NCBI GenBank assembly: GCA_947259115.1
Contig: CAMYKS010000010.1
Location: forward strand, 41,236 to 105,235
Origin: an uncultured Desulfobulbaceae bacterium
Lineage (GTDB): Bacteria; Desulfobacterota; Desulfobulbia; Desulfobulbales; BM004
Reading direction: 5' to 3'
Length of the DNA: 64,000 bases
The position numbers were made by a program, and so were the translations under genes. Shown here one piece after another: positions 204 to 37,147 of the stretch. Each line of letters starts with the position of its first letter. The stretch's first letter is position 1. A model generated the notes under the pieces. It was not told where the DNA came from. It worked only from the letters and a program-made list of their open reading frames with translations, and did no database searches.

Positions 204-1820
204 TCAGTTTGTATATTCTGCCTGCAATTTTTTCCAGGCCTTACGGTTTGCTGTTATGTCTGACTCAGCAAGGAGCATTTCAAGATATTCCTGCCGGGCA
301 CGCGAAAACTTCTCATTCTTAAGCTTCATGGAAATTTTATCCTTTACCTTTGCAAGGGGCATAGGTTCCTTGACCTTTCTGTCAACCAGCTTTGCCAAAG
401 AAACGTTATTAAACATTGCAAAGGGTTGACTCACCTCGTCTATATCAAGTTCATTTACCGCTTTGACAACTTCCGGGGACATCTGACTGGCCGGGATATT
501 CATGACAGGAATCGGGTTCAGGTTATATTTTTTACCCGCCCGGGTAAAATCCTGTCCTTGCTTCACTTCCAGCAATACATCGTTGATCGGTTTCTCTTCT
601 CCTTCCAGGAGGATTACACTCAGTGTTTCCGGCGGCCTGAACTCATCAGGATTCTCCTGGTAATACACATTAATCTCTTCGTCTGTTACCGATACCTGCG
701 ATGCGATAAGTCGTCCCTCCAATTCCTTGATCAATCTATTTTCCTGGTAAAATTCATAGGTCCATTTAAATGGGGGCTTCTCTTCATATTTCCTGTCACG
801 GGCCTCCCAGGTCAGAAGGTACTCAGCAATCATACCGTTCAAAAACCCCCTGGCCATTTTTTCCTTTTCTTCTTCGGTCCAGACCTTGTTCTTTCTGACG
901 CTGTATTCCTTACGGACATCTTTTACCACCATCCAGAAGGGCATGTTTTCCCTGTTTGTAGTAACCACAGGCCTGCCCAAAAGTTCTTTGCCCGGATCTT
1001 TATCAACCATGGCCATCAATTCCTCATCAACCCGGACATCATATTTTTTCCACAGGTCCTCGATCAGTTCAGCAGTCAGTTCAGCTTCCTTCTCCTTCCA
1101 CATCATTTCGCGAATTTGATTTTGTTTCATGTCAAATTCGTTTTCAGCAGGCTTGTTTTTTTCTTCCAGGCGTAAAATGATAAAATAATTCCCACCCTGT
1201 TGCGGTGTTGATACCTGGCCCACGGAAAATTGTTCCAGTCCATTGCGCAGTTCCTGATTATCACGGAAATTAAGAGGACGGAACCTGCCTTCTCTCAAAA
1301 AAGGGGCCCCTTCTGACCCGGCTTTTTTCTTGAGATCATCGAAGGTATATTCTTTATCTGCAATACCTCTGAAGGAATTTTCTGCTTTTTCCTCAGTGTC
1401 GAAATAGAGCAATGACATCCGGTATATGGGAGTATAATCGGCCTGGTAGCGCTCCTTCATCTCCTTTTCACTGAGTTCTAACCGGGAATCAACTGCATCG
1501 TTTTTCAACAGGATCCGGGTTCGCACCTTATAAAAAACATCAATCTTTCGCTGATAATTTGGTTCCTGGTCAAGCTCCATACTCCTGGCTTCCTGGGCCA
1601 GGAGTTTCCATTCGACAAACTGCTCTATGTCATCGGGGAAACGACTCCCTGCATCGCTCCAATTTTCCCACCAGCGCTTAAAATCATCCGGATTGTATGA
1701 AACACCGTTTATATTGACGAGATTGCCGGCATCCTTCCACGGCCATGCAGCAAAGGAAACGGCGGTGCAGAAAAGATTCACAAGAAAGGTGAGGATTATA
1801 ATATGTACTATTCTATACAT
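204..1820 (-). CDS. periplasmic SurA/PpiD-like chaperone with degenerate parvulin (PpiC-type) domains
   Basis: 538-aa ORF with an N-terminal signal or anchor (IIILTFLVNLFCTAVSFAAW). It has a helical SurA_N-like region and two parvulin-like segments (..VGQVSTPQQGGNYFIILRLEE.. and ..DEVSQPFAMFNNVSLAKLVD..). It overlaps the upstream gene by 13 nt, suggesting translational coupling. Confidence 0.6.
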   Translation of the reverse strand: MYRIVHIIILTFLVNLFCTAVSFAAWPWKDAGNLVNINGVSYNPDDFKRWWENWSDAGSRFPDDIEQFVEWKLLAQEARSMELDQEPNYQRKIDVFYKVRTRILLKNDAVDSRLELSEKEMKERYQADYTPIYRMSLLYFDTEEKAENSFRGIADKEYTFDDLKKKAGSEGAPFLREGRFRPLNFRDNQELRNGLEQFSVGQVSTPQQGGNYFIILRLEEKNKPAENEFDMKQNQIREMMWKEKEAELTAELIEDLWKKYDVRVDEELMAMVDKDPGKELLGRPVVTTNRENMPFWMVVKDVRKEYSVRKNKVWTEEEKEKMARGFLNGMIAEYLLTWEARDRKYEEKPPFKWTYEFYQENRLIKELEGRLIASQVSVTDEEINVYYQENPDEFRPPETLSVILLEGEEKPINDVLLEVKQGQDFTRAGKKYNLNPIPVMNIPASQMSPEVVKAVNELDIDEVSQPFAMFNNVSLAKLVDRKVKEPMPLAKVKDKISMKLKNEKFSRARQEYLEMLLAESDITANRKAWKKLQAEYTN

Positions 1821-2425
1821 TGTGCTATGAATCCTTCAGAGGCCCAGCGTTCAAGGATTTCCTGAGACACCAGGCTGATTAAGTTTGTTGATGTGTTGAC
1901 GACCCCAAAATGCATGACTTTGCGGTATTCGTCGCCTTTTCTTCGATGGTATGTCGTCCATATTGTTCTGCCGGAAGCTGCTTCAACCAACCGTACTTCA
2001 AGGGTCAGGAAAGGCACTTCCCTATCGCTGCCGAATTCAAGGGACTTCCCCATGTCCAGGATGTTACCTGCAATCAGGTATTGCACATTGAGATAGTTGC
2101 CAAGTATCTGCAGTTCTTCAATATTCGGCTTCCTGGCAAAGGGGATCATTCTTATCTGCCTGTAGGCATGGCGGATATCCCCTTCCTGGACGAGTTCAAA
2201 ACTGTCCAGTTCAGCGAGTTCTGCCTGAAAAATCCTATAGACAACAACAGCATCTTCAGTTGATTCTATTTCATTGGAAAAAGGCAATACTGCCAGACGG
2301 CAGACATTGGAGTCCGGCAGGCTTGTTAGTCTATGAAACTTCAAAGATTTACCGGAACAGGCGGTCAGCAACAGTAAGGAACTGAAAATAAGCAGTCCCA
2401 GTGTTGTTTTTCTTCCAAAAATCAT
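1808..2425 (-). CDS. lipoprotein with CsgG/LpoB-like alpha/beta domain (paralog 1 of 3)
   Basis: Signal peptide plus lipobox LLTAC. It carries the motif set LAVLPFSNE .. YLIAGNILDMG .. LTLEVRLVEAASGRTIWT, which is shared with the 4266..4856 product and the N-terminal domain of the 2538..4256 product. Confidence 0.55.
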   Translation of the reverse strand: MIFGRKTTLGLLIFSSLLLLTACSGKSLKFHRLTSLPDSNVCRLAVLPFSNEIESTEDAVVVYRIFQAELAELDSFELVQEGDIRHAYRQIRMIPFARKPNIEELQILGNYLNVQYLIAGNILDMGKSLEFGSDREVPFLTLEVRLVEAASGRTIWTTYHRRKGDEYRKVMHFGVVNTSTNLISLVSQEILERWASEGFIAQCIE

Positions 2426-7335: not shown

Positions 7336-8409
7336 TTACTTTGTTGTGTGGCACACAAAGCATCCATCCGTACCGCCAGTGCCTGCATCCATGAGGCCAT
7401 AGGACCAGCGCAGCATATCGGCATAGGGCGATCCATGGGCCCGGTGGCACGAGGTACAGACAACGATGTCGTCGCCTGCAGCCACCGCAGAGAAGCTGAG
7501 GGAGCCTGCGCCTGTTGTATTGGTGCCGACCGGGGACTGCACCTCATAGGTGACATAGGCTGCATACTCAGTGCCTGTGGCAGCACTCAACTGGAAATCG
7601 GTGGGATGGCGTCTCCAGGGTGAAGCACTACCGGCACCCAGATCCGTTGCAGGAACGTAGGTGCCGTGGAAATCACCGTGGCATAGGTTGCAATGCGCCT
7701 GGAAGGTATCTGAGGAACCTGTTGCCGGAGTTGCATCACCATAGTAAGCGTTATGGTCGTCGGAAGCATAGGTGAACTCCCAGTCCCCATTCTCACCGCC
7801 CTGGATATAAGAGGCCCCACCACCACTCAGAAAACGGTAACTGGCGCCCCTGCTGGAACCATCGGCCCAGCCGTCGGTATCCGTTGAATAGGTGCTGCCA
7901 GCATTGTAATGATGCGCACCGCCGATATGACAGCTCTCGCATTCAATTAAGTTGCCGCTAAAATTCGTGCCAACTGTGTTTCCCGGGGGTTCGCTCAGGG
8001 TTGCGTCGGGACTGGCTACACCAACAACGTTGTGCCCCTTGTTATCCTCAGCATCACCGGAGGTAGCAACCCAATAGAAATTTCCACCGGCTAGCGTAAT
8101 ACCAGTGTTACCTGTCTCGTCATAGGCTGGGTCTGTAGTGTGCAGAACAATGGGCGCGCTCCACTGGGCACTGACCGCGCCGTCTCCCGCATCACCGGTG
8201 TGGCAGGCCACACAACCGGCTACCCGCAGCAGGTAATTCTGCGCCTGAGTGGTGCCCACTGTCATGTGTGTACCATCCTGGCTGTTGTGCATGGCGTGAC
8301 ATTTGTTGCACAACCCCACCATGACTGCATCCGCCGTGCCCTGGGCCAGCAGAAATACCCCGGTGGCCATAGCACTGCAGAGTAAAGTCCTTGTTAGCAA
8401 TTTTTTCAT
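7336..8409 (-). CDS. omcS: OmcS-family hexaheme c-type cytochrome (candidate nanowire subunit)
   Basis: 357 aa with a Sec signal (..AQGTADA|V) and six CxxCH motifs at C34, C66, C157, C240, C318 and C350. Colinear blocks match my recollection of G. sulfurreducens OmcS: CNKCHAMHNS, GGNFYWV, NKGHNVVG, YRFLSGG, CNLCHGDFH, RRHP, CTSCHRAHGSPYADMLRW and C-terminal CFVCHTTK. A strong SD (AGGAGG) precedes the ATG. Confidence 0.85.
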   Translation of the reverse strand: MKKLLTRTLLCSAMATGVFLLAQGTADAVMVGLCNKCHAMHNSQDGTHMTVGTTQAQNYLLRVAGCVACHTGDAGDGAVSAQWSAPIVLHTTDPAYDETGNTGITLAGGNFYWVATSGDAEDNKGHNVVGVASPDATLSEPPGNTVGTNFSGNLIECESCHIGGAHHYNAGSTYSTDTDGWADGSSRGASYRFLSGGGASYIQGGENGDWEFTYASDDHNAYYGDATPATGSSDTFQAHCNLCHGDFHGTYVPATDLGAGSASPWRRHPTDFQLSAATGTEYAAYVTYEVQSPVGTNTTGAGSLSFSAVAAGDDIVVCTSCHRAHGSPYADMLRWSYGLMDAGTGGTDGCFVCHTTK

Positions 8410-8601
8410 TCCACCCTCCTACTCAAAATTCGTTGTCTCTTGTGAAGCGGTGAGGACTGATCCCCTCCCAGCTTCGCCGCTCTTCCTAAAATTAGTTAGT
8501 ATCTACCGTAAATAACCACCTGATGCAACTGGAAATAATTTTCTTTCTTGTTTAATTTTCATTTTGTGTTTAGTGGCATATATAAAGTCATTCTATCTAT
8601 A

Positions 8602-8617
8602 TGCAATTATTGCGCCA
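8602..8617 (-). promoter_or_regulatory. candidate sigma54 (RpoN) -24/-12 promoter for the OmcS-like gene
   Basis: The minus strand reads TGGCGCAATAATTGCA against the consensus TGGCAC-N5-TTGCW. The GG-N10-GC spacing is exact. It lies ~190 nt upstream of the ATG at 8409. Confidence 0.5.
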
Positions 8618-8733
8618 CAAGCAACGAAAAATACGTAACAAAAAGTTCCTAGTCATATAGCATCCAGTCAGCCCTTGTACAATCAACGGTTCATCCCTTG
8701 CAAAATTTTATTGCAAAATTCCATGGAAACCTC

Positions 8734-8758
8734 GCCCATGACAAAGATTGTCATGGGC
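8734..8758. promoter_or_regulatory. perfect 11-bp inverted repeat, candidate enhancer-binding (UAS) site or terminator hairpin
   Basis: GCCCATGACAA-aga-TTGTCATGGGC. It lies ~120-150 bp upstream of the sigma54-like element and 85 nt downstream of the NHL gene stop. No T-run follows on either strand. Confidence 0.3.
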
Positions 8759-8842
8759 TGCACATTGAGCCGCCCCCCAAATTGACAAAAAATGTCACAT
8801 ATTGCCGCAAAATGTCACACATGGAGTGTGCACCATACTCTT

Positions 8843-10885
8843 TCATGGGACATCCATTACCTGCACCCTGTGGTTGAACATATCGGCCACAATAACGTTG
8901 CCGCGCCGGTCCACTGCAATATGGGACGGAAACTGAAACCAGCCTTCAGACAATCCCTGCCCCCCGAACTCAAGCAGATATCTGCCGTCCTTATAGGTAT
9001 AGGCATTGATGGCATGCCGCATGTAATCTACGACGTAGATGACCTCCCGGTGGACATCAACAGCAATGCTCCTCGGGTTGCTGAGCTTGCCGGTGGACCC
9101 TCCCAGTTCACCAAAGGCAAAGAGGAAATTCTCATCCCTGTCGAGCACGAAAACGCGGCCGGCAATATTGGCGAGGATGTATATCCTGCCCTTGGTATCC
9201 ACCACAACATCCTCCACCTTGAGTGCGCCGGGGTGGCTGGGATCATTGCCCATCTCTTCACTCACGCCGCCTACCTTCAAGGGTACGAGCCAGCGCTTGA
9301 AATTTCCTTCCAGGTCAAGCACCAGCACACCTTTTGCGCCATTGCCGGATATATAGAGCGTATCATTGCCAGGACCGAGGGCCATGTTCTGCGGCACAAA
9401 ATTACCAGCAATACCGGGAATTTCAGCAAAGAAAATATCACGCACTTTAAAAAATGCAGCGTTGAGCACCCTGATCATCGGCGCTATCCTGGTTCCTGCA
9501 TCATCACTGGTTTCTCCCTGGGCCACATAAATATTCCCCTGCTTATCAACTGTCATTCCCATGGGATTACTGATTCCCCTACCCGGGCCAAGTGCGGCCA
9601 CGGGAAAATAGTCCTGCCCGTAAATTGTCACCCTGGTATTTACCTGGCCGCCGGAACTGAGCATATATATCTCATCCATGAACGGGTCATAGTGGACCTC
9701 TCTGGGGAAAGAAATTCTTCGGTCATAGATGTCCCGGAAAAAAACCTTGACCACCCGCACAGGAGACAGGCCGCTTGGCTGACCCCGCTTGGCGAATTTC
9801 TCACCCTGGTCAAAAATATCGGCTCCAGGGGTGTCCGTGCCTTCGTCCGCATCCTTTAGGTCCAGCAGGGTGGCAGTTTCCTGCCGGGGCACAACAGCGG
9901 CAGTGGTAACTGCTGCATCGTCTGCCTTGTTCGGCTGGGCTGCATCTCCCATGGACGCTCCACCGGCCTGGCCCCCTTCTGCAACGGTCTCAAAGGACCC
10001 GTCCAGTTCACCGCTGCTTTCCTCAAGCTGTTCGTCCGCAAGAGCATCCGGGGCTACCAAGGCAACAGGAGCCGGAACCAATTCCGCCGCAGATTGATAC
10101 TGTCTGGATATGCGCTCTGCCTTGATGTATGCCTGCAAAATGTTGGCGCCATCAAGGGGCTCCCCAACCGTTCCAAGGAATGCATCCGCGTCTGCCAGGC
10201 TCTCAAATCTGCCGATTCTGACAGTATGGTACCCCTGTACCTTCTCTATGCGCAGATGATCACGCTGCGTTTCCCGTAATGCTTTTACCAGAAACTGGTA
10301 TTTTTTCTCAGCAGCATCTTCAATGCTGTAGCTGCCCACCTGGATTGTATAGTACTCCTGCTGCTCATTGAAACCGGTTGCAAAATTTGTTGTTGGTGCA
10401 AGGGTTTCAGCCGCTGTTTCTTTTTCAGGAGAAACCGGCAGAATATCATTTACCGATTTTTTCGGGACTGATGCGGTATCCTGGCTAAGAGGCAGAGAAG
10501 CCTCTTCGTGCAAAACAGGTTCATATAATAAGGATATTCGCTCGGGCTTGTTATGGGCTTGCAGAATAAGGGCCCCGGCAAGGGGTTCACCGGCTGCCCC
10601 AACTATCCGATCTGCTTCGCTCCATGAACCAAACCTGCCAAGCCTTACTGTATAGTAGCCACCCACCTTTTCAACACGCAGGTAATCCCGCTGATCAGGC
10701 GCAAGACTCTCAGCCAGGGAATGGAATAACCTTGTTGCAGGCGGTTCCTGGCTGTAGCTTCCGGCTTGGATTGTATGGAACTGCGAAAGATCTGCGGCTC
10801 CGGCAGATGAATGGAACAGGAAAGGTGTCAGAAAAAAGAGGAGGAGGTAAATTGAAAAATGATATGAAATTATTCTAAATTTCAT
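8843..10885 (-). CDS. secreted SPOR-SPOR-NHL-repeat beta-propeller protein
   Basis: The ORF runs to 10936. Met at 10885 has a GAGGTG SD and starts a signal peptide (MKFRIISYHFSIYLLLFFLTPFLFHSSAGA). There are two SPOR-like repeats (FHTIQAGSYS..YYTVRLGRFGSWSEADRIV and YYTIQVGSYS..YHTVRIGRFESLADADAFL), then an Ala/Glu-rich linker, then NHL repeats (..LSNPRSIAVDVHREVIYVVD.., ..PSHIAVDRRGNVIVADMFNHRVQVMD). It contains no CxxCH. Confidence 0.75.
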   Translation of the reverse strand: MKFRIISYHFSIYLLLFFLTPFLFHSSAGAADLSQFHTIQAGSYSQEPPATRLFHSLAESLAPDQRDYLRVEKVGGYYTVRLGRFGSWSEADRIVGAAGEPLAGALILQAHNKPERISLLYEPVLHEEASLPLSQDTASVPKKSVNDILPVSPEKETAAETLAPTTNFATGFNEQQEYYTIQVGSYSIEDAAEKKYQFLVKALRETQRDHLRIEKVQGYHTVRIGRFESLADADAFLGTVGEPLDGANILQAYIKAERISRQYQSAAELVPAPVALVAPDALADEQLEESSGELDGSFETVAEGGQAGGASMGDAAQPNKADDAAVTTAAVVPRQETATLLDLKDADEGTDTPGADIFDQGEKFAKRGQPSGLSPVRVVKVFFRDIYDRRISFPREVHYDPFMDEIYMLSSGGQVNTRVTIYGQDYFPVAALGPGRGISNPMGMTVDKQGNIYVAQGETSDDAGTRIAPMIRVLNAAFFKVRDIFFAEIPGIAGNFVPQNMALGPGNDTLYISGNGAKGVLVLDLEGNFKRWLVPLKVGGVSEEMGNDPSHPGALKVEDVVVDTKGRIYILANIAGRVFVLDRDENFLFAFGELGGSTGKLSNPRSIAVDVHREVIYVVDYMRHAINAYTYKDGRYLLEFGGQGLSEGWFQFPSHIAVDRRGNVIVADMFNHRVQVMDVP

Positions 10886-10986
10886 TGACACCTCAAGCGA
10901 AATAACAGGTGAGCAGCTGTATTGCAAACTGCCCACCTGGGATATATGAAAAGATTAACTCAACATGACATGCTGCGATAAAGCAC

Positions 10987-12041: not shown

Positions 12042-12839
12042 TTATTTAACCAGGAAATGCGCGTCCAGATGACAGTCTAGACAGTTGGGCATTTTCTGAT
12101 GCATAAATGACGAGTGGGGTTCGCCGTGGCAGGTCTGACACTGGGGCACATTGGGATGCTGCCCCCGGTGGCAGAAGGCACAGGTAAATGTCTGGTGCTT
12201 GGTCACGGTTTTTTCCAGCTGCTCGCCGACTTCCTCATGACATGGCACACAGAAAGCCCTCTGGGTGGTCATCGCATAATTAATTTGCAGCGGATGATGT
12301 GCAGGGTGACAGCCGAGGCAGTCACTGGTCAGTTGGCCTTCCGCGTGGGGCTCATGACAGTTGGAGCAATCGGGGATCTTGCCATGCACCTCGTGGCAGA
12401 AGGTACATGACTGCTCTGCATGGGCACTGGCGAAATTGGCAAAATCCTGCCCCGGGCCTTCATGGCAGGTGAGACACGGCTCTTTAATATCATCGGCAAG
12501 GTTCAGGGCCAGGGGTTCATGGGGATTCGAATGACAGGAGAGGCAGTTTTCCAGTTCAAAATGCGACCTCCCTTCATGGCACATGGAGCATTGCGGAATA
12601 ACTTCTTCCCCCCAGGGCGGATGCTCCTGGTGACAGTCCAGACAAGTAACAGCGGTCTGATGCTTGCCGCCGTTGCTGGCTATTGAGGCCGGCGCATCCT
12701 GGTGACACTTGACGCAGTCCGCTAAATCCAGAGAGGTCAGTTCTGCTTTTGCCTCACTGGGGAAAACAGCCAACATGGCAGCTGCAACGACAACTGCGCA
12801 GAGAAAACCAAATAAAGAATATCCTTTTTTTTCCATCAT
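12042..12839 (-). CDS. dodecaheme c-type cytochrome, tandem paralog
   Basis: 265 aa with a signal peptide (..VFPSEAKA) and 12 CxxCH motifs (CVKCH, CLDCH, CSMCH, CLSCH, CLTCH, CTFCH, CSNCH, CLGCH, CVPCH, CAFCH, CQTCH, CLDCH). Its module spacing matches that of the 11081..11941 product. Confidence 0.9.
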   Translation of the reverse strand: MMEKKGYSLFGFLCAVVVAAAMLAVFPSEAKAELTSLDLADCVKCHQDAPASIASNGGKHQTAVTCLDCHQEHPPWGEEVIPQCSMCHEGRSHFELENCLSCHSNPHEPLALNLADDIKEPCLTCHEGPGQDFANFASAHAEQSCTFCHEVHGKIPDCSNCHEPHAEGQLTSDCLGCHPAHHPLQINYAMTTQRAFCVPCHEEVGEQLEKTVTKHQTFTCAFCHRGQHPNVPQCQTCHGEPHSSFMHQKMPNCLDCHLDAHFLVK

Positions 12840-13185: not shown

Positions 13186-15387
13186 ATGAAGATCACTGGA
13201 AAAATATTTACCACCAAGACCTGGGCATTTCTGCTTCTGCTTTTTGCCGTCTCTTTAGTATATTCCAACACAATCCATGCCCCTTTTACCTTTGATGATG
13301 CCCAGATTGTCGATAATTATTTCATCCAGATCACAGATATTACCCCGGAAAATTTACAGCAGATTGCCACCCTGAGTCCAAACAAGCGACGCCTGCTGCC
13401 GAATATTTCCTTTGCTCTTAACTATTACTTTGCCGGCTACAACGTTATTGGCTTTCATCTGGTCAATATCCTCCTCCATATTGGCGTAGGATTTTCCTTT
13501 TATCTCCTGGCCCGAAAAACCCTGGGGCTGCTGCCTGCATCCCTGATCACCGGGCGCAAAGCTGAGATTGCGCTGGCGGCAGCACTGATTTGGGCCCTCC
13601 ATCCCCTGCAGACTAACGGTGTTACCTACATTGTCCAACGCATGACCTCCATGGCAAGCCTTTTTTTTCTGCTCTCATTGCTGTCTTATATCAAGGGCCG
13701 AACTGTCAAAAATGGTATGAGAAAGATATTCTTTTTCCTGTCTGCTTTTGTCCTGGGCACCATGGCTCTGCTGAGCAAGGAAAACAGCGGCATGCTGCCC
13801 GTGATGATCGTCGGTTATGAGTTCTTTTTTTTAAGGCCAGCGGATGCAAACAGAAAAGAGCGGCTGAAAATCCTTGCGGCTGCAGGAGTCCTGTTCATTA
13901 TTTTTGCCATTATATGCTGGACCTTTTTGGGCAGCGACCCACTTAATGCCATTGTACAAGGTTACGGTCGCAGAGATTTCACCCTTTACCAGAGACTTTT
14001 GACCCAAAGCAGGATCGTAACCCACTACCTGTCCCTACTGCTCCTGCCGCTTCCTGCAAAACTCAACCTGGCCTACGACTTCCGGCTCTCCACCGGGCTT
14101 CTGACACCGATCCAGACATTTCCTGCTATAATTTTTGTTACCGCGCTGGCAACTCTCATTTTCCCGTTATACAGACGTGACAGGCTGACAGCTTTTGCTT
14201 TTTTCTGGTTTCTGGGAAATCTTTTTGTGGAATCAACGGTCATTCCCCTGGAACTTATTTTTGAACACCGTATGTATATGCCCTCCATGTTTCCTATCCT
14301 GGCAGGCACTTTCTGGTGTTACAGGATTTCAGGAACAAAAAACTGCAGGATTCTGCTGCTTGTCACATTATCTTTCCTGGCATTATTCACCTGGCAGCGC
14401 AATACTGTCTGGCAGAGCGAAATCAGCATCTGGACCGATATTGTCCAGAAATCGCCTGCATTGCCGAGGGCGTATGTCAATCTGGCAAAGGCATACGGAG
14501 AAAAAGGCGAGCATGAGAGGGCTGAAACCTTACTGCTCCAGGCCAGCAACATTGCTCCTGAAGACGTTCACACATTACTCAGCATGGGAGCTGCGCTGGA
14601 AAATTTGAATCGGCATGCGGAAGCACTGGACTTTTATAGGAGGGCTCTTCAGCAGCAGGGAATCGATGAGGCAAAGGCTCACAGGAACCTTTCCGGGCTT
14701 TACCTGAGGATGAATACATTCGATAAGGCCCTTATCCATGCGCGTGAAGCCAACAGGCTTAACCCTTATAATTATGAAGCCTTTATCCTGCTGGCTGCAG
14801 CCTATTTCAAATCCGGCAACCTGCTCCAGGCAGAGCGCACCTTAAAGCAGGCCCTTGGCCTTTTTCCTGCAAAGGGGGATATTTACGTACAGCTGGGAGT
14901 CATCCATGAACACCAGAACAGGCTTGCTGAAGCTGTCAATATGCTGAAAATGGGGCTCGCCTCCAGAGAGGTTGACCGGGCCAGGGCATACAATACCCTA
15001 GGCATTGTCCACTGGCGGCAGCGTAATTATTCCCTGTCAGTCACGGCAGCTCAAAAGGCCATTGAGATCAATCCGCAGCTTGTTGATGCATACCTGACCC
15101 TTGGTATCACGTATGAAGACATGGGTCACCGGGACTTAGCTCTGCAGCAGTTCACCCGGGGGTGGCAGCAGGGCCTGGATGTTGTTGGGATATTTAATGG
15201 CTGGGCCATGAATTTTCTTAATTCGAACCAGGCTGACAAAGCAGAATTTTATTTGCTGGAAGCCATCAAGCTTGAACCGGGCAGGCCGGAAAGCCACGAC
15301 AATCTTGCCTCTGTTTACCAGGTAAAGGGCATGAGCGCACAGGCGCACAAGGAAAGGGAGATTGCAAGGTCCCTGCGAAACCGTTAG
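13186..15387 (+). CDS. TMTC/PMT-like GT-C membrane protein with C-terminal TPR array (putative protein O-glycosyltransferase)
   Basis: 733 aa with a multi-pass N-terminal half. It carries an acidic first-loop motif (APFTFDDAQIV) and a DUF1736-like motif (LHPLQTNGVTYIVQRMTSM). The C-terminal half consists of TPR repeats. Confidence 0.6.
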   Translation: MKITGKIFTTKTWAFLLLLFAVSLVYSNTIHAPFTFDDAQIVDNYFIQITDITPENLQQIATLSPNKRRLLPNISFALNYYFAGYNVIGFHLVNILLHIGVGFSFYLLARKTLGLLPASLITGRKAEIALAAALIWALHPLQTNGVTYIVQRMTSMASLFFLLSLLSYIKGRTVKNGMRKIFFFLSAFVLGTMALLSKENSGMLPVMIVGYEFFFLRPADANRKERLKILAAAGVLFIIFAIICWTFLGSDPLNAIVQGYGRRDFTLYQRLLTQSRIVTHYLSLLLLPLPAKLNLAYDFRLSTGLLTPIQTFPAIIFVTALATLIFPLYRRDRLTAFAFFWFLGNLFVESTVIPLELIFEHRMYMPSMFPILAGTFWCYRISGTKNCRILLLVTLSFLALFTWQRNTVWQSEISIWTDIVQKSPALPRAYVNLAKAYGEKGEHERAETLLLQASNIAPEDVHTLLSMGAALENLNRHAEALDFYRRALQQQGIDEAKAHRNLSGLYLRMNTFDKALIHAREANRLNPYNYEAFILLAAAYFKSGNLLQAERTLKQALGLFPAKGDIYVQLGVIHEHQNRLAEAVNMLKMGLASREVDRARAYNTLGIVHWRQRNYSLSVTAAQKAIEINPQLVDAYLTLGITYEDMGHRDLALQQFTRGWQQGLDVVGIFNGWAMNFLNSNQADKAEFYLLEAIKLEPGRPESHDNLASVYQVKGMSAQAHKEREIARSLRNR

Positions 15388-15510: not shown

Positions 15511-17370
15511 TTGCACAAAAACAACAATATGCCCTCCAGATCAAGGATCATAGCGTTTCATCTGCTTTCTTTCACCCTGCTTGCAGCTGCAATAGCACTT
15601 CTCTATAGCAATACTTACAGGGTGCCGTTTTTTTTCGACGATAAGCCCAATATAGTCCTGAATCCGTTTTTAAGAATTGATGATATATCCTGGGAGAGCC
15701 TCAAGAAAGCTGCCGTAATGAGCCCCAATAGAAACAGGTGGCTGCCCAACATATCCTTTGCCCTGAACCATTATTTTGACGCATATGATGTCTGGGGATA
15801 CCACCTGATCAACACCCTCATCCACATTGCAACGGCTTTCACCCTGTACCTCCTGGGGCGGCTCACCCTGACTCTGCCTTCCATGGCTGGACGCTACAAA
15901 CACGCTGCAGAAATTGCCTTTACGGCAGCACTGGTCTGGGCAGTTCACCCCCTGCAAACCAATGGGGTAACCTACATCGTCCAGCGCATGACTTCAATGG
16001 GTGCTCTCTTCTATCTTCTGGCACTGTACTGTTACGTCAAAGCCAGGCTCCTGCACGCAAGCGGAGCTAAACTTTTTTTCTTCGGCCTGACCGTGCTGCT
16101 GACCGTCATGGCCCTTTTGAGCAAGGAAAACAGCGGCATGCTGCCAATGATAATTATCGCTTATGAACTGCTATTATTACGTCAGCCGGACACCGGTCTT
16201 TTCAGGCAGAAGAAAGTGGTTCTGGCGACCTTTGGGGCTTTTCTTCTTTTCATTTTTTTCTGCTGGTATTTTCTCGGCAGTAATCCCTTTACCAGCATCC
16301 TCGGCGGTTATGAACACAGAGAGTTCACCCTAGGCCAACGCCTGCTTTCCCAGGCCAGGATCGTTATACACTATCTTTCACTCATGGTTCTGCCGGTGCC
16401 GGACAGGCTCAACCTCATGTACGAGTATCGGGTGTCCACCGGCCTGCTGGCCCCCCCCCAGACACTTCTGGCACTCGGCGTTCTGGCCGGACTTGCTTTT
16501 CTGGTCTTCCGGATGTGCAAGCGGGACAGTCTCTTTGCCTTTGGCATTTCCTGGCTACTGATCAATCTGATCGTGGAATCTTCATTTATTCCATTGGAGC
16601 TCATTTTTGAACACCGCATGTATCTGCCCTCCATGTTTCTCATTCTTGCCATGGTTGCCTGGTGCTATAAACTGGCAGCGCCCAGGCCTGTCCTGGCCAG
16701 GGTGTCCATACTGCTGGTAGTTGCCCTGCTTTCGTCCGCCACCTGGCAGAGAAACATCGTATGGGATAATAGGATCAGCTTCTGGTCAGATGTTACAAGT
16801 AAATCCCCTGATTCCATGCGAGGCTGGGCAAATCTTGGGAATGCATACAGCGAGGCCCGGAAATATAAAACCGCAGAGCAATATCTGCTCAAAGCCATTG
16901 CCTTGGAAAAATACGATCAAAGTGGAAATTTCGGCAGGGCTGCCAAGAGAAATTACGCTGCCAATATCCATGACAATCTTGCCTTGGTGTATCGGGAACT
17001 CGGCCAATATCAAAAGGCATTAGATCACGCCAATACCTCCCTCGCCCTCAATCCTTCACGCCCGGAACCCCTTGTAACCATTGGCATAGTCTATGCCAAA
17101 ACCGATCAGCATGCAAAGGCATACGAGTATTTCATGCTGGCATGGTCAAAAGGCATTGAAAGTGTAGACCTGTACAATAACTGGGCGGTGAGTTCTTTCA
17201 ATATTGGGCAGGTGGACGAAGCAATCGATCTGCTTTATAAAGCCCTGAAAATTAATCCAGACCATCCTGAAAGTCATTATAACCTGGGTATTGCTTACAG
17301 CAGTAAAGGCATGCTTGAGGAGGCACAGCGGGAGATGCTGCGTGCCATGCAGCTTAGGCAGAAACAATAA
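15511..17370 (+). CDS. TMTC/PMT-like GT-C membrane protein with C-terminal TPR array, tandem paralog
   Basis: 619 aa with the same motifs as its neighbour (VPFFFDDKPNIV, VHPLQTNGVTYIVQRMTSM, FEHRMYLPSMF). The track start at 15511 is TTG; an ATG at 15529 is an alternative start. Confidence 0.6.
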   Translation: MHKNNNMPSRSRIIAFHLLSFTLLAAAIALLYSNTYRVPFFFDDKPNIVLNPFLRIDDISWESLKKAAVMSPNRNRWLPNISFALNHYFDAYDVWGYHLINTLIHIATAFTLYLLGRLTLTLPSMAGRYKHAAEIAFTAALVWAVHPLQTNGVTYIVQRMTSMGALFYLLALYCYVKARLLHASGAKLFFFGLTVLLTVMALLSKENSGMLPMIIIAYELLLLRQPDTGLFRQKKVVLATFGAFLLFIFFCWYFLGSNPFTSILGGYEHREFTLGQRLLSQARIVIHYLSLMVLPVPDRLNLMYEYRVSTGLLAPPQTLLALGVLAGLAFLVFRMCKRDSLFAFGISWLLINLIVESSFIPLELIFEHRMYLPSMFLILAMVAWCYKLAAPRPVLARVSILLVVALLSSATWQRNIVWDNRISFWSDVTSKSPDSMRGWANLGNAYSEARKYKTAEQYLLKAIALEKYDQSGNFGRAAKRNYAANIHDNLALVYRELGQYQKALDHANTSLALNPSRPEPLVTIGIVYAKTDQHAKAYEYFMLAWSKGIESVDLYNNWAVSSFNIGQVDEAIDLLYKALKINPDHPESHYNLGIAYSSKGMLEEAQREMLRAMQLRQKQ

Positions 17371-17397: not shown

Positions 17398-19503
17398 TTA
17401 GCGGTATGCTGTTTTCTTTTGGAGCACCTCTATAAAATCGACCATTATTTCCCCTGACTCAATGACAACCGGGTCTTTTGTGTCCACTTTAGAATTGTGG
17501 GGAACCCTGGGCTCTTCCTCTTTCAAATCAGAAATTTTTTGCAGGGGCGGCTCGCCCTTGCTTAAGCGAAGAGAGTTTTCCAACTCCAGGCGCCATGCAT
17601 CCGCCTCTTCACGCTCTTTCTTTCTTGTCTCCTCCGAGAGAGAAATATTCTTTTTATTCTTCATGCTTTCATTGCGCCGGCGTCTGTCCAGGACATACTG
17701 ATAGTCCTGGCTCATCCTGTTCCTGGTAGTATGCTGATTCTCAAGCATTGGCACGATATCCTCCATTTTATAATATATCTGATAGGGAATGGAGTTTATT
17801 TTATCCCAGGAAAGCGCCTCAGACAGGGAGCTTTCTCCGATGTCGTCAAAGCTGTAGAGGCTCGGGTAGTAGAGATCAGGCACCACACCCTTATGCTGCG
17901 TGCTTTTGCCTGAAATACGATAATATTTTGCCGTGGTCGCCTTCAGTTGTCCCTTTGAGAGGGGCAGCAGGGACTGAACCGTGCCCTTGCCGAATGTCTG
18001 CTCACCAAGAACAATACCCCGGTTGTAATCCTGAATGGCCCCGGCAAAAATCTCTGAAGCTGAAGCGCTCATGCGATTCACTATTACCAGGAGCGGGCCG
18101 GCATAAACTATTTGAGGATCATGATCCCTGATAATATCAATGCGTCCGTTTGCATTCCTGACCTGAACCGTGGGGCCTAAACCAATAAAAAGTCCCGAGA
18201 GGCTGTTTGCCTCCTGCAGAGAGCCGCCACCGTTATCCCGCAGATCTATAATTATGCCCTCAACCCCTTCCTGCTTTAATTCCAACAGCAAACGTTGAAC
18301 ATCCTTGGTTGTGCTTTTATAATTCGGATTGCCAGCATGCATACCCTTGAAATCAGCATAAAATGTCGGGATATCAATAATCCCTATTTTGTGGGTCTTG
18401 GCATTGCGCTTCACTTCAATGACCTGTTTCTGGGCCGCCTGTTCCTCCAGCTTTACCTTGTCGCGCACAATGCTGATAGTTTTGGTCTGGTGATCGTCCT
18501 CGGCATCCACCGGAATAATCTCAAGCCGCACCAGGCTGCCCTTTGGACCGCGGATATTGTTGACCACCTCATCAAGCCGCCAGCCCACAATATCAAGCAT
18601 TTCTCCGGCACTGCCCTGGGCAACGCCCACAATACGGTCGGCAGCCTTAAGCAGTTTTGAGCGTTCTGCCGGACCCCCGGGTATCAAGCGCACAACCTTG
18701 GTGTATTCATCCTCACTTTGCAGGACAGCACCTATGCCTTCAAGGGACAGGCTCATGTTAATATTGAAATTTTCAGTGCGGTGTGGTGAAAAATACTGGG
18801 TATGGGGGTCTGTGGAAAGGGCCAGAGCGTTTATATAAAACTCAAATGCATCATCGCTGCTGTTCTGCTGTATACGTTTGAGCTGATTCCGATAGCGCTT
18901 CAGCAGTATTTCCTGTATTTCATCGAGACTTTTGTCTGCCAGTTTCAGACTGATCACATTGCCTTTTAAACGCTTGCGCCACAATTCCTCCATGGAGACC
19001 TCAGTCTCGGGCCAGGGAATGTCTTTGCGGTCAACCCGCAATGTTTCCTCGACATCAAATTTCATATCTCCAAGCCCCTGCTCGAGCCTGTCAATCAGAA
19101 AGGTAAGCCGTTCCACCACCCGCTGCTGATATTTGTTGAAAATCTCATAAGCGGGTTCCAGGTCGCCCTTATTCAGGGCATCATCGAGCTTGAAGCGATA
19201 TTTAATTTCAAATTCCTTTATGTCATTGCCATAGAAATAACTGTGGCTCGGGTCCAGTTCGTCAAGGTAGCGATACAGGATTGTCGAAGACATCTGGTCG
19301 TTAATATCAATTTTCAGATAATGCCGGTGTTTCAAATGCTCGACAATGGCATCGTTTATCTTTTTATGCTCCTTTGAGGGGGTCAGAACTGAATTTGCCG
19401 GTTCCGCCGTCTTGGACATTGCCTGACCGGAGACCGCAACCGGCAGACTCCAAATTAAACAGCAGGTGATCGCAAGAAGTGTTACATTATTAAATATTTT
19501 CAT
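17398..19503 (-). CDS. prc: carboxy-terminal processing (tail-specific) protease, S41 family
   Basis: 701 aa with a signal peptide, a PDZ region (LSLEGIGAVLQ) and the S41 catalytic region (NRMSASASEIFAGAIQDYNRGIVLGEQTFGKGTVQ). Confidence 0.85.
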   Translation of the reverse strand: MKIFNNVTLLAITCCLIWSLPVAVSGQAMSKTAEPANSVLTPSKEHKKINDAIVEHLKHRHYLKIDINDQMSSTILYRYLDELDPSHSYFYGNDIKEFEIKYRFKLDDALNKGDLEPAYEIFNKYQQRVVERLTFLIDRLEQGLGDMKFDVEETLRVDRKDIPWPETEVSMEELWRKRLKGNVISLKLADKSLDEIQEILLKRYRNQLKRIQQNSSDDAFEFYINALALSTDPHTQYFSPHRTENFNINMSLSLEGIGAVLQSEDEYTKVVRLIPGGPAERSKLLKAADRIVGVAQGSAGEMLDIVGWRLDEVVNNIRGPKGSLVRLEIIPVDAEDDHQTKTISIVRDKVKLEEQAAQKQVIEVKRNAKTHKIGIIDIPTFYADFKGMHAGNPNYKSTTKDVQRLLLELKQEGVEGIIIDLRDNGGGSLQEANSLSGLFIGLGPTVQVRNANGRIDIIRDHDPQIVYAGPLLVIVNRMSASASEIFAGAIQDYNRGIVLGEQTFGKGTVQSLLPLSKGQLKATTAKYYRISGKSTQHKGVVPDLYYPSLYSFDDIGESSLSEALSWDKINSIPYQIYYKMEDIVPMLENQHTTRNRMSQDYQYVLDRRRRNESMKNKKNISLSEETRKKEREEADAWRLELENSLRLSKGEPPLQKISDLKEEEPRVPHNSKVDTKDPVVIESGEIMVDFIEVLQKKTAYR

Positions 19504-30261: not shown

Positions 30262-31896
30262 TCACGGTTCCGGGTCCAGTTTATCAATGAGCATGATCTG
30301 GTATTTCGCATCCACTGATTCAGGATCTACTGCTAAAATCTGTTTATACGTACTCCTGGCTCCCTCATATTCCTTCTGCTGCACTTGCAGTTTTCCCAGC
30401 CTGTCCAGCGCCCTCAAATAATGCGGATTAATTTTCAGGGCCTGCTCATATGAATGAAGGGCCTTCTGGGCTTCATCCTTCATTTCATGGGCTATACCCT
30501 CATCGGTATAGGAATGGCTGAAATCAAAAGGCTCTATAACCTTACTATTGGCAAGGCCAAGAACACATCCCACTATGATGAGGCTCACTGCAAGTTTGCG
30601 CCACCGGGCCGTGCGAAACTGATCCTGCAGCATGGAAAGCCCATAGCCTGCCGACAGGCAGAAGAGCGGCAAAGCAACCATCCTGTAACGGGAAAAAACA
30701 TAAAAAATGATGACAGAAACGATATAGGCAATCTGGATAAAAAAGAGAAACACCGGTGCACTTCGTCTCTCTTGCAGCATGCCAAGAAGTCCCAGCAGAA
30801 AAAAGGGGGCCAGCAGGCCGAAACTGATTGGTAACACCTGCAGGACCTTTGAATAGCGCTTATGGAAGTAAAGGTTGTGATTATCGGGAATTTCATAATC
30901 GTTCAAAAAGAGCAGCAGTTTCTTAGCGCTAAGCTTAAGGTCTTCCATTGGATTATTTTGTATAAAATCGATACTCTGCAGTAGCCAGTAACGGGACACT
31001 TGCGAAGGGCTCAGCGTTCCACCGCTGCGCTTCTCCGCCTCATTTTTAAAATCTTCCTGCTCATGCATGGGGTCAGGGCGCACAAAGTCCAGTTTAACAT
31101 AGGTGCCGTTGGCATCAGGATTATGGCCGACATAAAAATTCTGACCAGCCTGGGCGGTGGTCAGAATTAATTCCTTGCCCAGCATATAATTATGCGCAAC
31201 AGCCGGCCCCAGAGCCGCTAGAACCCCGATAAAAAAAAGGGCGGCCATACCTGAACGAATTTTTATCTGCGCATTTTTCTGCACCAGGATCGTGATGAAA
31301 ACCACGGGCAGGAGGAGAAGAAAATTTGCCCTGGTGAGACAGGCAAGACCGAGAAAGAACCCGGAAAAAAACTGGCTCATGCTGATTTCTTTTAAATCCT
31401 TCTCAAGAAACAGATATATTGCCATGGTAAATAGAAAGGCCGACAGGGTCACCTTGAGCAGCAACCCGTCAAAATATATTGCCGGTCCATACAGGGCATA
31501 TAGTAATCCCGCAAAAATGGCGGCAGTCCTGTTGAAAATTCTCGTACCCAGCAGAACAAGCAGCAGGGAAGTACAGGCCCCGAGAAAGGCCTGGGCTAAA
31601 TATACCCAGAACAACTCCCGCCCCATGATCTTGTAAAAAAGTGCCAGAAAGTAAGGGTAAAGAGGGTCCTGGTAGAAAATGTCTTTGCCACGCCAGCCAT
31701 GCTCGACAATCTGGCGGGCCCAGCGGTCATAGGCCCCGAGATCTCCCGGCAGCACATCAAAAAAAGGACTGTTCTTATAAATTGATGCTATATGGATAAG
31801 GCGGAGCCCAAGAGCCAGGATAAAAATTGCAAGCGCCCAAAAAAGTATTTTTTTTTCTGTGACTTTCTGCATGGAAGCTGCTTTCATGGCTAACAT
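30262..31896 (-). CDS. GT39/ArnT-like membrane glycosyltransferase with C-terminal TPR
   Basis: 544 aa with a multi-pass membrane N-terminus (FYQDPLYPYFLALFY) and C-terminal TPR repeats (ALHSYEQALKINPHYLRAL..). Confidence 0.6.
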   Translation of the reverse strand: MLAMKAASMQKVTEKKILFWALAIFILALGLRLIHIASIYKNSPFFDVLPGDLGAYDRWARQIVEHGWRGKDIFYQDPLYPYFLALFYKIMGRELFWVYLAQAFLGACTSLLLVLLGTRIFNRTAAIFAGLLYALYGPAIYFDGLLLKVTLSAFLFTMAIYLFLEKDLKEISMSQFFSGFFLGLACLTRANFLLLLPVVFITILVQKNAQIKIRSGMAALFFIGVLAALGPAVAHNYMLGKELILTTAQAGQNFYVGHNPDANGTYVKLDFVRPDPMHEQEDFKNEAEKRSGGTLSPSQVSRYWLLQSIDFIQNNPMEDLKLSAKKLLLFLNDYEIPDNHNLYFHKRYSKVLQVLPISFGLLAPFFLLGLLGMLQERRSAPVFLFFIQIAYIVSVIIFYVFSRYRMVALPLFCLSAGYGLSMLQDQFRTARWRKLAVSLIIVGCVLGLANSKVIEPFDFSHSYTDEGIAHEMKDEAQKALHSYEQALKINPHYLRALDRLGKLQVQQKEYEGARSTYKQILAVDPESVDAKYQIMLIDKLDPEP

Positions 31897-35410: not shown

Positions 35411-37147
35411 TCACCGATGCAGGGACTCTGCCAGCCAGGCAAGTCCTGCCAGCAGGAAAAAAACCGATTCCAGGCAGAATTCAAGTTTAGGCCCCTGAGT
35501 TATTTTGCCTTTAGTGTACAGCCGGATTAACACGATAATATACAGTATGCCCGGCAGCAGCCAGAATCCCGCCTCCGACATGAGACCTAAAAACGGCATG
35601 AGCAGCAGCAGAACAATCAGCGCTCCCAAAATAATATGCAGAAAAAAGAGCGTCTTCTGCTCACCGATACAAACGGGCAGCGTTTCCTTGCCGACAATTC
35701 TGTCTCCCTGCACCTCGAAAACATCGAAAAGCGCATTTCTTACAAAAACAAGGAGCAGAATAAAAAACAGAACCACCAAAGTCATCATATCCGGGGTATG
35801 GGAGTCGCTCCAGGCTGGGATAAGGGCAGTAATAAAAGCCCAGGCCACAGCCACCAGGAAGGTCTTGGAGCCGGGAATCTCCTTCAGGCCCCGCACCCTG
35901 ATATTCGGAATCAGGGATTTGGGAATGACCTGCACGCTGTAAAGAATACCGAAAATACTCATGCCCGTCAGAAGCAGAAAAGGCTTTAATCCGTGTTCAA
36001 ACACCAGTGTCAGGGCTAAGGCCAGGGACAGGGCCGAAATGATCAGGAGCGGCCAGCGGTATTTCTCATAAAACAGTGCCCGCAACGGATCATTGAATTT
36101 TTGCTGTTTTCTGTCGGTAAAACGATTGAGATTGTGCATGGCAAACAGATACAAAAAACTGATCAGAAAATGGCTTACCCCTGGGCCATTGTTCTGCAGA
36201 ATCTCTGCCGTATAGGTGAGCGCTCCACCTGCAAGACTCACGTAGATATTGGTCGCCAGAAGAAGCCAGAGCAGTTTGCTGCCGGACTTCTTAAGCGTGC
36301 CCTCATCCTTGCCGGGCATAGCCTCCAGTATCGCGACAACCCTGCTTATCATCCAGGTAGGAGTTGAAGCTCCGGCAGTAACACCTACAAATTCATGTTT
36401 TGCCAATGCATCAAGGTCCAGTTCACCTTCGGTTTCAACCTGATAAACAGGACAGCCCTTACCCTCAGCTATCTCAGCCAGCCTTTTCGTATTGGCACTA
36501 TTCTTGCCCCCCACCACAACCATGGCATCTACATCATTACAAAGGCTGCGCACCTCTTCCTGGCGTTTATGGGTGGCATCGCAAATGGTATTAAAAACCT
36601 TGCCGCCTGGAAAACGCTCCAGAATCGAACTGCTCAATTCTTCAAAGCTGGTTGCATCCTGGGTTGTCTGGCTGACGATTATGTAGGGCACATTAAGCTG
36701 CAAGTTCTGTACATCTTCCCGGTTGCTGACAACCTTACCCAAACTCCCGGTAAAACCCATCAGACCTTCAACTTCCGCATGATTACGGTCACCAATAATA
36801 ACGGTTGCATACCCATGCTTGAGATACTTTTTGATAACAACCTGGACCTTGACGACATGGGGACAGGTTGCATCCTTAACGGTGGCACCTGTCATCTGGA
36901 GCTTTTCCTTATGAACAGGGGGAACACCATGGGCTCGTATAATAACCGTGCCGGATTCCTTTTCAGGGATATCCCGGAGTATCTTGACGCCCCGCTCCTC
37001 TAAAAGATTGAGAACCTGGGGATTATGGATCAAAGGGCCATAGGTTGATACTCCCGTACCCTCTTTCTGGATAACCTCCAGGGTAGTTTCCACCGCCCTC
37101 CTGACCCCCATGCAGAAACCGGCACTTTTTGCTAAAATAACTTTCAT
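35411..37147 (-). CDS. ispH: fusion: 4-hydroxy-3-methylbut-2-enyl diphosphate reductase (IspH) + UbiA-like polytopic prenyltransferase domain
   Basis: 578 aa. Residues 1 to ~285 form a complete IspH (MKVILAKSAGFCMGV.., DATCPHV, NTICDATHKRQ, GVTAGASTP). Residues from ~290 to the end form ~8 TM helices with Asp-rich UbiA-type motifs (NRFTDRKQQKFND and FDVFEVQGDRIVGKETLPV). Confidence 0.7.
   Translation of the reverse strand: MKVILAKSAGFCMGVRRAVETTLEVIQKEGTGVSTYGPLIHNPQVLNLLEERGVKILRDIPEKESGTVIIRAHGVPPVHKEKLQMTGATVKDATCPHVVKVQVVIKKYLKHGYATVIIGDRNHAEVEGLMGFTGSLGKVVSNREDVQNLQLNVPYIIVSQTTQDATSFEELSSSILERFPGGKVFNTICDATHKRQEEVRSLCNDVDAMVVVGGKNSANTKRLAEIAEGKGCPVYQVETEGELDLDALAKHEFVGVTAGASTPTWMISRVVAILEAMPGKDEGTLKKSGSKLLWLLLATNIYVSLAGGALTYTAEILQNNGPGVSHFLISFLYLFAMHNLNRFTDRKQQKFNDPLRALFYEKYRWPLLIISALSLALALTLVFEHGLKPFLLLTGMSIFGILYSVQVIPKSLIPNIRVRGLKEIPGSKTFLVAVAWAFITALIPAWSDSHTPDMMTLVVLFFILLLVFVRNALFDVFEVQGDRIVGKETLPVCIGEQKTLFFLHIILGALIVLLLLMPFLGLMSEAGFWLLPGILYIIVLIRLYTKGKITQGPKLEFCLESVFFLLAGLAWLAESLHR

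Follow-up and report, generated by a model that had tools for sequence, protein, structure and literature searches.

A candidate peptidoglycan-tethered NHL propeller in a multihaem-cytochrome gene cluster of an uncultured Desulfobulbaceae bacterium

By what means cytochrome filaments and giant multihaem conduits are built, held in place and connected through the periplasm is a question on which a 2025 review rated the secretion mechanism and membrane anchoring of OmcS nanowires as 'still speculative' (PMC12307469). The same question is raised by a single gene within a 64,000 nucleotide stretch of DNA (hereafter the window) from an uncultured Desulfobulbaceae bacterium (GenBank assembly GCA_947259115.1, contig CAMYKS010000010.1, positions 41,236 to 105,235 of the forward strand). 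The product of this gene, which we call the SPOR-propeller, joins two SPOR domains through an acidic linker to a six-bladed NHL beta-propeller and is encoded within a cluster of multihaem cytochrome genes. A first-pass annotation of the window, made from the sequence without database searches, had suggested that the propeller is positioned at the cell wall in order to guide or cap a cytochrome filament as it crosses the periplasm. Our analysis directly establishes which domains the protein has, to which family it belongs, that its synteny is conserved and that the family has repeatedly been fused to wall modules, and we consider it an even call that the SPOR-propeller is a soluble periplasmic accessory subunit that acts as a peptidoglycan-anchored scaffold of an osc-type multihaem-cytochrome export or electron-conduit machine.

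The open reading frame begins with an ATG at 10885 that is preceded by a GAGGTG Shine-Dalgarno sequence, homologues share the same MK... start, and the stop codon occupies 8843-8845. As the first-pass annotation had noted, the protein contains no CXXCH haem motif (0 found). Its N-terminus reads as a Sec-type signal peptide in which the lipobox cysteine is absent, and the signal peptides of its homologues are of the classical AXA type, with cleavage sites (AHA, LRA, AVA) directly ahead of the first SPOR domain. Because there is no lipobox and the homologues have AXA signal peptides, we infer a cleaved, soluble periplasmic protein for which the wall would be the sole anchor. In an AlphaFold2 model built from an 86-sequence alignment the N-terminus forms a helix at residues 3-25.

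The Pfam SPOR profile (PF05036) matched two stretches of the SPOR-propeller with an E-value of 5.9e-15 and a score of 55.8 bits against a cutoff of 21, which bears out the call of SPOR repeats made at first pass. Both repeats follow the beta-alpha-beta-beta-alpha-beta order of secondary structure in the AlphaFold2 model, with a predicted local distance difference test (pLDDT) score of about 90 or higher, and when the second repeat was modelled separately the best PDB structures found by Foldseek were the SPOR domain of CwlC (1x60, template modelling (TM) score 0.69) and that of RlpA (6i05/6i09). The RlpA matches include a glycan complex, the E-values being modest (1.6e-3) for what is a small domain. 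Since a single-sequence search of the SPOR region against PDB sequences gave no match, SPOR membership rests on the Pfam profile and the fold. The first-pass count of two repeats stands, but its repeat length of about 75 residues was too short, as each unit extends to about 90 residues when an extra C-terminal strand is counted. The two repeats are identical at 47 of 88 positions and both contain LR[VI]EKV..Y.TVR[LI]GRF. Alcorlo 2019 found the glutamine of strand beta1 to be the only highly conserved side chain touching the denuded glycan, assisted by a basic patch (PMC6895207). This glutamine is present in both repeats (Q40 and Q182, within TIQxGSYS) together with basic residues at R70, K73, R81 and R84 of the first and R212, K215, R223 and R226 of the second, and across 72 distinct SPOR repeats of the family the beta1 glutamine is kept in 83% and R212, R223 and R258 in 98-100%. 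With a profile score above threshold, a ribonucleoprotein (RNP)-like fold and the beta1 glutamine with its basic patch all found, both SPOR domains look functional as far as sequence features allow this to be judged.

Low-confidence, disordered stretches separate the folded parts in the AlphaFold2 model at residues 127-171 and 270-356. A linker between the SPOR repeats and the propeller had been predicted at first pass and does exist, although not as the Ala/Glu/Pro-rich segment of about 120 residues that was described; it is 107 residues long, rich in Ala, Asp, Gly and Glu (A19, D12, G12, E10), contains 7 prolines and has a net charge of -16. Within this otherwise disordered acidic stretch lies the motif ELDxSFETVxEG (window 9950-9985, residues ~301-312), written ELDGSFETVAEG and also present in relatives P0019-P0021 (P-numbers denote retrieved proteins and L-numbers retrieved loci in our analysis). 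It is restricted to the closest relatives, SPOR-less ones included, and might serve as a short linear motif for docking.

The call of an NHL propeller was likewise upheld, with a match to PF01436 (E 1.2e-10) and with matches of the C-terminal 300 residues to solved NHL propellers (Thin, TRIM71, TRIM2/3 and Brat) at E-values down to 2e-36. The modelled domain comprises 25 strands (6x4+1) at a pLDDT of about 96 and superposes in Foldseek on the NHL domains of TRIM proteins and Thin and on the sensor propeller of PknD with a TM score of about 0.8, so that both the repeat profile and the six four-stranded blades of an NHL propeller are found. The family motif YVVDYMRH corresponds to residues 617-624, and the invariant D620, R623, H624, D668 and N671 fall in the repeated structural NHL motif (D..NHR).

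The gene belongs to a cluster of nine, running from 12839 to 204 and all on the minus strand, and the neighbour at 7336-8409 is a hexahaem cytochrome gene. A profile built from 35 homologues of this neighbour matches OmcS (6EF8) over ~300 residues with an E-value of 3.5e-27, a relationship that a single-sequence search against the PDB did not recover. Its His41 (CHxMH, precursor numbering), conserved in at least 90% of the 35 homologues, falls opposite residue 16 of the OmcS chain in that alignment, the inter-subunit haem ligand of OmcS. By sequence the neighbour is thus a member of the OmcS family, and its polymerisation is putative.

In order to place the SPOR-propeller among its relatives we used a whole-protein word-indexed search, which returned about eight full-length relatives with the nearest full-length homologues in Desulfobulbia genomes, and a propeller-only search, which at E<=1e-10 returned 963 proteins. 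When species-representative genomes were scanned for the motifs YV[VIA]DYMRH and ..V[ASV]D[YMF]FN, 174 relatives and 80 loci were recovered at best-segment identities of 28-46%, the best match being 34% identical. The loci come from Thermodesulfobacteriota, Nitrospirota and Aquificota, and carriers include a SEEP-SRB2 metagenome-assembled genome (MAG), Thermodesulfatator, Desulfurivibrio alkaliphilus and Desulfuromonadales. The proteins of the window cluster were mapped onto all loci by phmmer, using mechanically called open reading frames some of whose starts are over-extended. Of the 82 loci, 71 have at least one other cluster component besides the propeller; no more than 2 kb separates the propeller from an OmcS-like gene in 32 of the 82 and from a 12-haem cytochrome in 19, the 12-haem pair adjoining the propeller in many loci. 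The barrel gene (~690 residues) is kept in 38 loci, the 572-residue protein in 42 and the peptidyl-prolyl isomerase (PPIase) in 34. The cluster order of the window recurs in L001, L002, L004, L007, L014, L019 and L084, and in the loci of relatives 26- and 16-haem cytochromes frequently come after this gene set. The SPOR-propeller is therefore a member of a distinct propeller family tied to a multihaem-cytochrome/PPIase cluster. Source records name its homologues 'cell division protein FtsN' (JGI record, P0004) or 'DNA-binding beta-propeller fold protein YncE', labels that are probably misleading; such names on homologues need caution in annotation.

The commonest architecture in this family is a signal peptide followed by a propeller of about 300 residues, upon which several kinds of extension have been added. 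One to four copies of an N-terminal SPOR domain occur in the window protein and in P0002-4, P0006-8, P0048, L001-4, L006, L007, L012-14 and L019, and a further ~25 distinct 50%-identity clusters with N-terminal SPOR came from searching 1.84 billion representatives exhaustively with HMMER. SPOR domains are found at the C-terminus in P0107, P0112, P0122 and P0125 (Pfam E 8e-6 for P0112, which stands first in a compact operon of equivalent type in L084), a C-terminal OmpA-like domain (E 7e-21) is present in the Nitrospiraceae locus L064, and one or two C-terminal SH3_3 domains are present in Desulfobacterales (L032, L043, L073, L082, P0246 and P0257). Among further members some have an NTF2-like Cds6_C domain and some have extensions that match no recognised domain, and Pfam searches of ten more members with extensions of 150-580 residues yielded no additional modules. 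The fusion types occupy different clades when the propeller domains are placed in a simple neighbour-joining tree without support values. That the modules sit at opposite termini and belong to different domain families is enough to show independent fusion events, and such recurrence suggests, as domain-fusion evidence drawn from sequence, that the propeller acts at the peptidoglycan layer. The cell-wall position proposed at first pass thereby gains support, independent of the window protein, from the C-terminal SPOR, OmpA-like and SH3b fusions of other lineages. Probes for separate wall-binding genes near non-fused propellers found none, these being local probes of limited sensitivity.

As side observations, two members, at L022 9869-13054 (a MAG labelled Desulfobacterales) and L029 8271-11345 (Desulfurivibrionaceae), combine the propeller with a C-terminal extension of ~700 residues that has no Pfam match, and several others have unexplained extensions of 150-200 residues.

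A propeller companion of multihaem cytochromes is itself already known, because the clusters of Skennerton 2017, of Desulfovibrio ferrophilus (Deng 2018) and of the Uet type each have one; the new part is the tether and its recurrence. The operon described by Skennerton 2017 has as its core a six-bladed propeller, 16- and 26-haem cytochromes and a PPIase, surrounded by smaller cytochromes, and was found in SEEP-SRB1, Desulfuromonadales, Ca. Desulfofervidus and Desulfurivibrio, the core proteins being predicted to be periplasmic and attached to neither membrane (PMC5539420). The window cluster appears to be of the same operon type with the same predicted periplasmic location, and L018 is a contig of Desulfuromonadales C00003107, a genome from that study. 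The proteins described there consist of a signal peptide and a propeller, whereas in the window protein two SPOR domains and a long acidic linker come on top of these, and the window ends short of the position at which the 26- and 16-haem genes are expected. By description the gene content of the window cluster also corresponds to the osc cluster of Geobacter sulfurreducens, for which, in the account given by PMC13194489, Shen et al. 2025 ascribe to OscH (PPIase) a role in folding, to OscEFG one in secretion and to OscD (GSU2500) one in morphology. OscD resembles the window protein, on the same description, in being a propeller beside OmcS-family cytochromes, a channel-like barrel/lipoprotein set (OscEFG) and a PPIase (OscH), and no SPOR module is mentioned in the citing passage. 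Although the companion recurs in many electron-transfer clusters, OscD is, in the literature reached, the only propeller of such clusters with a reported phenotype (nanowire morphology; PMC13194489), and the first-pass remark that a propeller protein was reported to control filament morphology agrees with that passage. A search with a Geobacteraceae family member gave no match named G. sulfurreducens among the 120 listed.

NHL propellers are likewise encoded in electron-transfer clusters of D. ferrophilus (DFE_0451 and DFE_0463; Deng 2018; PMC9769857) and in the Uet cluster of Ca. Tenderia, where UetH and UetI occur with a PPIase (bioRxiv 10.1101/2022.05.06.490989). These propellers, which we liken to the window family by description, are encoded and expressed together with multihaem cytochromes of the outer membrane and the periplasm and have been proposed as interaction scaffolds; a wall-binding module is not reported for them. 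The claim at first pass that the SPOR-NHL combination is functionally undescribed agrees with the literature searched, in which no paper contained both 'SPOR domain' and 'NHL repeat'. On the SPOR side, the window protein shares the Pfam family, the predicted fold and the beta1 glutamine with its basic patch with FtsN, DamX, DedD, RlpA and CwlC. Those are divisome proteins or wall hydrolases in which one C-terminal SPOR domain stands behind a membrane or lipid anchor, whereas the window protein has two at its N-terminus (relatives have 1-4), seems to lack a membrane anchor, and bears a cytochrome-machine propeller as cargo. Other trans-envelope machines also have wall modules, among them the OmpA-like domain of MotB and TagL, the AMIN domain of PilQ and the LysM domain of TsaP and FimV. 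The logic there is the same, in that the wall-binding domain of an accessory subunit positions an apparatus, but the machines and domains differ and no homology is meant.

In the mechanism that we propose the SPOR-propeller would be exported by the Sec pathway, its signal peptide would be cleaved, and the two SPOR domains would then bind glycan strands of the sacculus. The 107-residue disordered linker would let the propeller reach the periplasmic face of the barrel/lipoprotein complex, where it could serve as a binding platform for a cytochrome component, either the base of an OmcS-like polymer or the 12-haem periplasmic cytochromes, and the conduit would thereby be fixed to the cell wall both laterally and mechanically. 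Its role as a protein-interaction platform is suggested by analogy, because its best structural matches are such platforms; that the protein binds peptidoglycan, which partner it holds and that it anchors the conduit are all inferred. Several observations weigh against this wall-anchored scaffold. About 190 of the 219 members examined have no recognisable wall-binding module, so wall anchoring is not obligatory for the family, and the closest relatives (P0021-P0024 and P0028, 52-60% identity) keep the acidic linker and lack SPOR, which indicates that the SPOR module is readily gained and lost. The OmpA-like fusion is found in one locus only, and SH3_3 domains are commonly, not always, wall-targeting. 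In the SEEP-SRB2-type loci L010, L021 and L026 the propeller, barrel, lipoproteins and PPIase are present with an OmcS-like gene undetected nearby, and the Desulfobacterales loci have the same propeller set with such a gene undetected within the fetched flanks, so that the propeller is not OmcS-specific. Denuded glycans, the targets of SPOR domains, moreover concentrate at septa in model organisms, and to read the protein as an 'anchor anywhere' may be an oversimplification.

This last point leads to a possible though doubtful alternative, framed by analogy with the AMIN domains of PilQ, in which SPOR would deliver the propeller and a nascent cytochrome machine to division sites or new poles. 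The specificity of SPOR for denuded glycan (PMC6895207), which is made by division amidases, the conservation of the beta1 glutamine and basic patch in the family repeats, and SPOR copy numbers of 1-4 that suggest a tuning of avidity all favour such targeting, but the OmpA-like and SH3b modules of other lineages are not septum-specific and the common denominator of the fusions is the wall. The suggestion made at first pass, that the propeller engages either the OmcS-like subunit or the end of the filament and governs polymerisation or morphology at the wall, draws on the adjacent OmcS-family gene in the window and in the loci counted above, and on the reported effect of OscD on OmcS nanowire morphology in the passage of PMC13194489. 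We think it unlikely, given the SEEP-SRB2-type and Desulfobacterales clusters that have the propeller without an OmcS-like gene (the latter with a haem-free lipoprotein of ~470 residues instead) and the many loci in which it adjoins the 12-haem pair instead. A more specific version of the scaffold, which strikes us as rather unlikely as a whole, is that of a dedicated peptidoglycan-docking subunit for a cytochrome nanowire or conduit machine, installed at septa, at new poles or where the wall is locally stripped to pass a polymer of ~4 nm, with the propeller as a periplasmic base-plate coupling filament, periplasmic cytochromes and sacculus; if true, long-range electron-transfer appendages would follow a structural principle that has so far gone unrecognised.

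Two further explanations fare worse. The propeller could be a lactonase-, arylesterase- or PAL-like hydrolase or lyase, delivered by SPOR to act on peptidoglycan or glycan or in cytochrome modification; SPOR is often appended to wall hydrolases (RlpA, CwlC), and there are weak matches to the SGL (gluconolactonase-like), Arylesterase and DUF5128 propeller families. As every one of these enzyme-family matches of the window protein lies under the Pfam gathering cutoff, catalysis was rejected as the main explanation, and it appears improbable also from the invariant residues, which fall in the structural NHL motif with no evident active-site constellation, and from the top structural matches, which are protein- or RNA-binding NHL domains and the PknD sensor. 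That the protein is an ordinary division or wall protein lying by chance among cytochrome genes is a reading we can hardly credit. SPOR is typical of the divisome and the source annotation of P0004 is FtsN, but the association of the family with the cytochrome cluster across loci, the absence of division genes near the SPOR-propeller gene and an architecture reversed with respect to FtsN, DamX and DedD (N-terminal SPOR, no evident membrane anchor, no cytoplasmic tail) all speak otherwise; an FtsN/DamX/DedD-type identity was rejected on finding tandem N-terminal SPOR domains, a cleavable-looking signal peptide and cytochrome-machine neighbours.

The repeated wall-module fusions in unrelated lineages point, as a testable clue, to the peptidoglycan layer as the propeller's place of action, for which variants with SPOR deleted or grafted on would be natural constructs.

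Table 1 Coordinates of the SPOR-propeller gene, its parts and the other genes of the cytochrome cluster within the window
Feature	Coordinates	Strand	Evidence
SPOR-SPOR-linker-NHL propeller gene, whole (680 aa)	8843..10885	-	Open reading frame, translation, Shine-Dalgarno, Pfam SPOR and NHL
Sec-type signal peptide, residues 1-30	10796..10885	-	MKFR, hydrophobic core and SAGA/A, read from sequence
SPOR domain 1, residues 34-122	10520..10786	-	Pfam PF05036; AlphaFold2 pLDDT 89-95; conservation in 72 repeats
Inter-SPOR disordered linker, residues 123-172	10370..10519	-	AlphaFold2 pLDDT about 30; composition
SPOR domain 2, residues 173-267	10085..10369	-	Pfam; separate AlphaFold2 model pLDDT 94.5; Foldseek
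Acidic disordered linker, residues 268-374	9764..10084	-	AlphaFold2 pLDDT <50 at 270-356; composition
Six-bladed NHL beta-propeller, residues 375-680	8846..9763	-	Pfam NHL/SBBP, PDB sequence matches, AlphaFold2, Foldseek
12-haem cytochrome, 265 aa, first cluster gene	12042..12839	-	CXXCH count, Pfam
12-haem periplasmic-type cytochrome, 286 aa	11081..11941	-	12 CXXCH; Pfam cytochrome c7/c3
OmcS-family hexahaem cytochrome, 357 aa	7336..8409	-	6 CXXCH; profile against OmcS
Putative outer-membrane beta-barrel, 717 aa	4999..7152	-	OMP_b-brl/BBP2 matches, weak, under Pfam cutoffs
LpoB/GNA1162-like lipoprotein, 196 aa	4266..4856	-	Pfam LpoB E 1e-4
Ig-like (FlgD_ig-type) region protein, 572 aa	2538..4256	-	Weak Pfam match
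Lipoprotein, 205 aa, paralogue of the 196-aa one	1808..2425	-	Lipobox LLTAC; phmmer cross-matches
Parvulin-type PPIase (Rotamase_2), 538 aa	204..1820	-	Pfam E 1.5e-20

The remaining genes of the cluster are listed in Table 1; no NCBIfam model matched any of the nine cluster proteins at cutoff. The 196- and 205-residue lipoproteins and the N-terminal part of the 572-residue protein match one another in phmmer and share a resemblance to LpoB/GNA1162, and the orthologue of the 196-residue lipoprotein in L084 has an additional faint match to CsgG. The 'channel-like' part of the cluster may consist of these paralogous LpoB/CsgG-like lipoproteins together with the barrel of about 700 residues. Many genomes contain 2-4 tandem hexahaem-type paralogues with 5-7 CXXCH motifs (e.g. 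L008, L066 and L067). In the Desulfobacterales (SEEP-SRB1-like) loci L016, L032, L036, L038, L040 and L043 a haem-free lipoprotein of ~470 residues (…SCxFEP…GQVFFYLSCPKK…) lies between the propeller and barrel genes and takes the slot of the OmcS-like cytochrome.

Looking at the noncoding parts of the cluster, a promoter-like site (12945-12918) lies ahead of the first 12-haem gene and a terminator-like hairpin was found at 12031-11994. The 433-bp intergenic region upstream of the OmcS-like gene (8410-8842, minus strand) contains a sigma-54-like -24/-12 element at 8617-8602, TGGCGCAATAATTGCA, along with the direct repeat TGTGACATTTT (two copies), the palindrome CATGACAATCTTTGTCATG and the recurring TTTTGCAA. 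A weaker -24/-12-like site is located upstream of the SPOR-propeller gene at 11002-10987, and the orthologues of the propeller and OmcS-like genes in L001 have a gene for a sigma-54 activator between them. Window-wide the sigma-54 consensus is not enriched (42 found against 44 expected), and the two intergenic matches are leads only. A stable 13-bp hairpin (10906-10939, minus strand) precedes the start codon of the SPOR-propeller by 20 nt, and the 96-nt leader of the gene has a minimum free energy of -29.5 kcal/mol (z -2.8); the hairpin could act in termination or attenuation behind the 12-haem gene, or belong to the 5' untranslated region as an element of it. No Rfam family was matched in the whole window, and hence no riboswitch upstream of the cytochrome genes.

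Beyond the cluster, three paralogous polytopic membrane proteins with C-terminal arrays of tetratricopeptide repeats (TPR) are encoded at 13186-15387 (+), 15511-17370 (+) and 30262-31896 (-), one of which matches PMT_2, a family of GT-C glycosyltransferases. Beside OmcE nanowire clusters, both GT39-type glycosyltransferases and proteins with TPR have been reported (bioRxiv 10.1101/2025.10.22.684050), which makes a glycosylation of cytochromes or of the envelope a possibility here. A gene for a tail-specific (Prc-type, S41) periplasmic protease is located at 17398-19503 (-), ~4.5 kb past the upstream end of the cluster and beyond two of the TPR membrane-protein genes. Finally, one open reading frame at 35411-37147 (-), unrelated to the propeller, joins IspH/LytB (E 1.5e-89) to a UbiA-family prenyltransferase in an unusual architecture.

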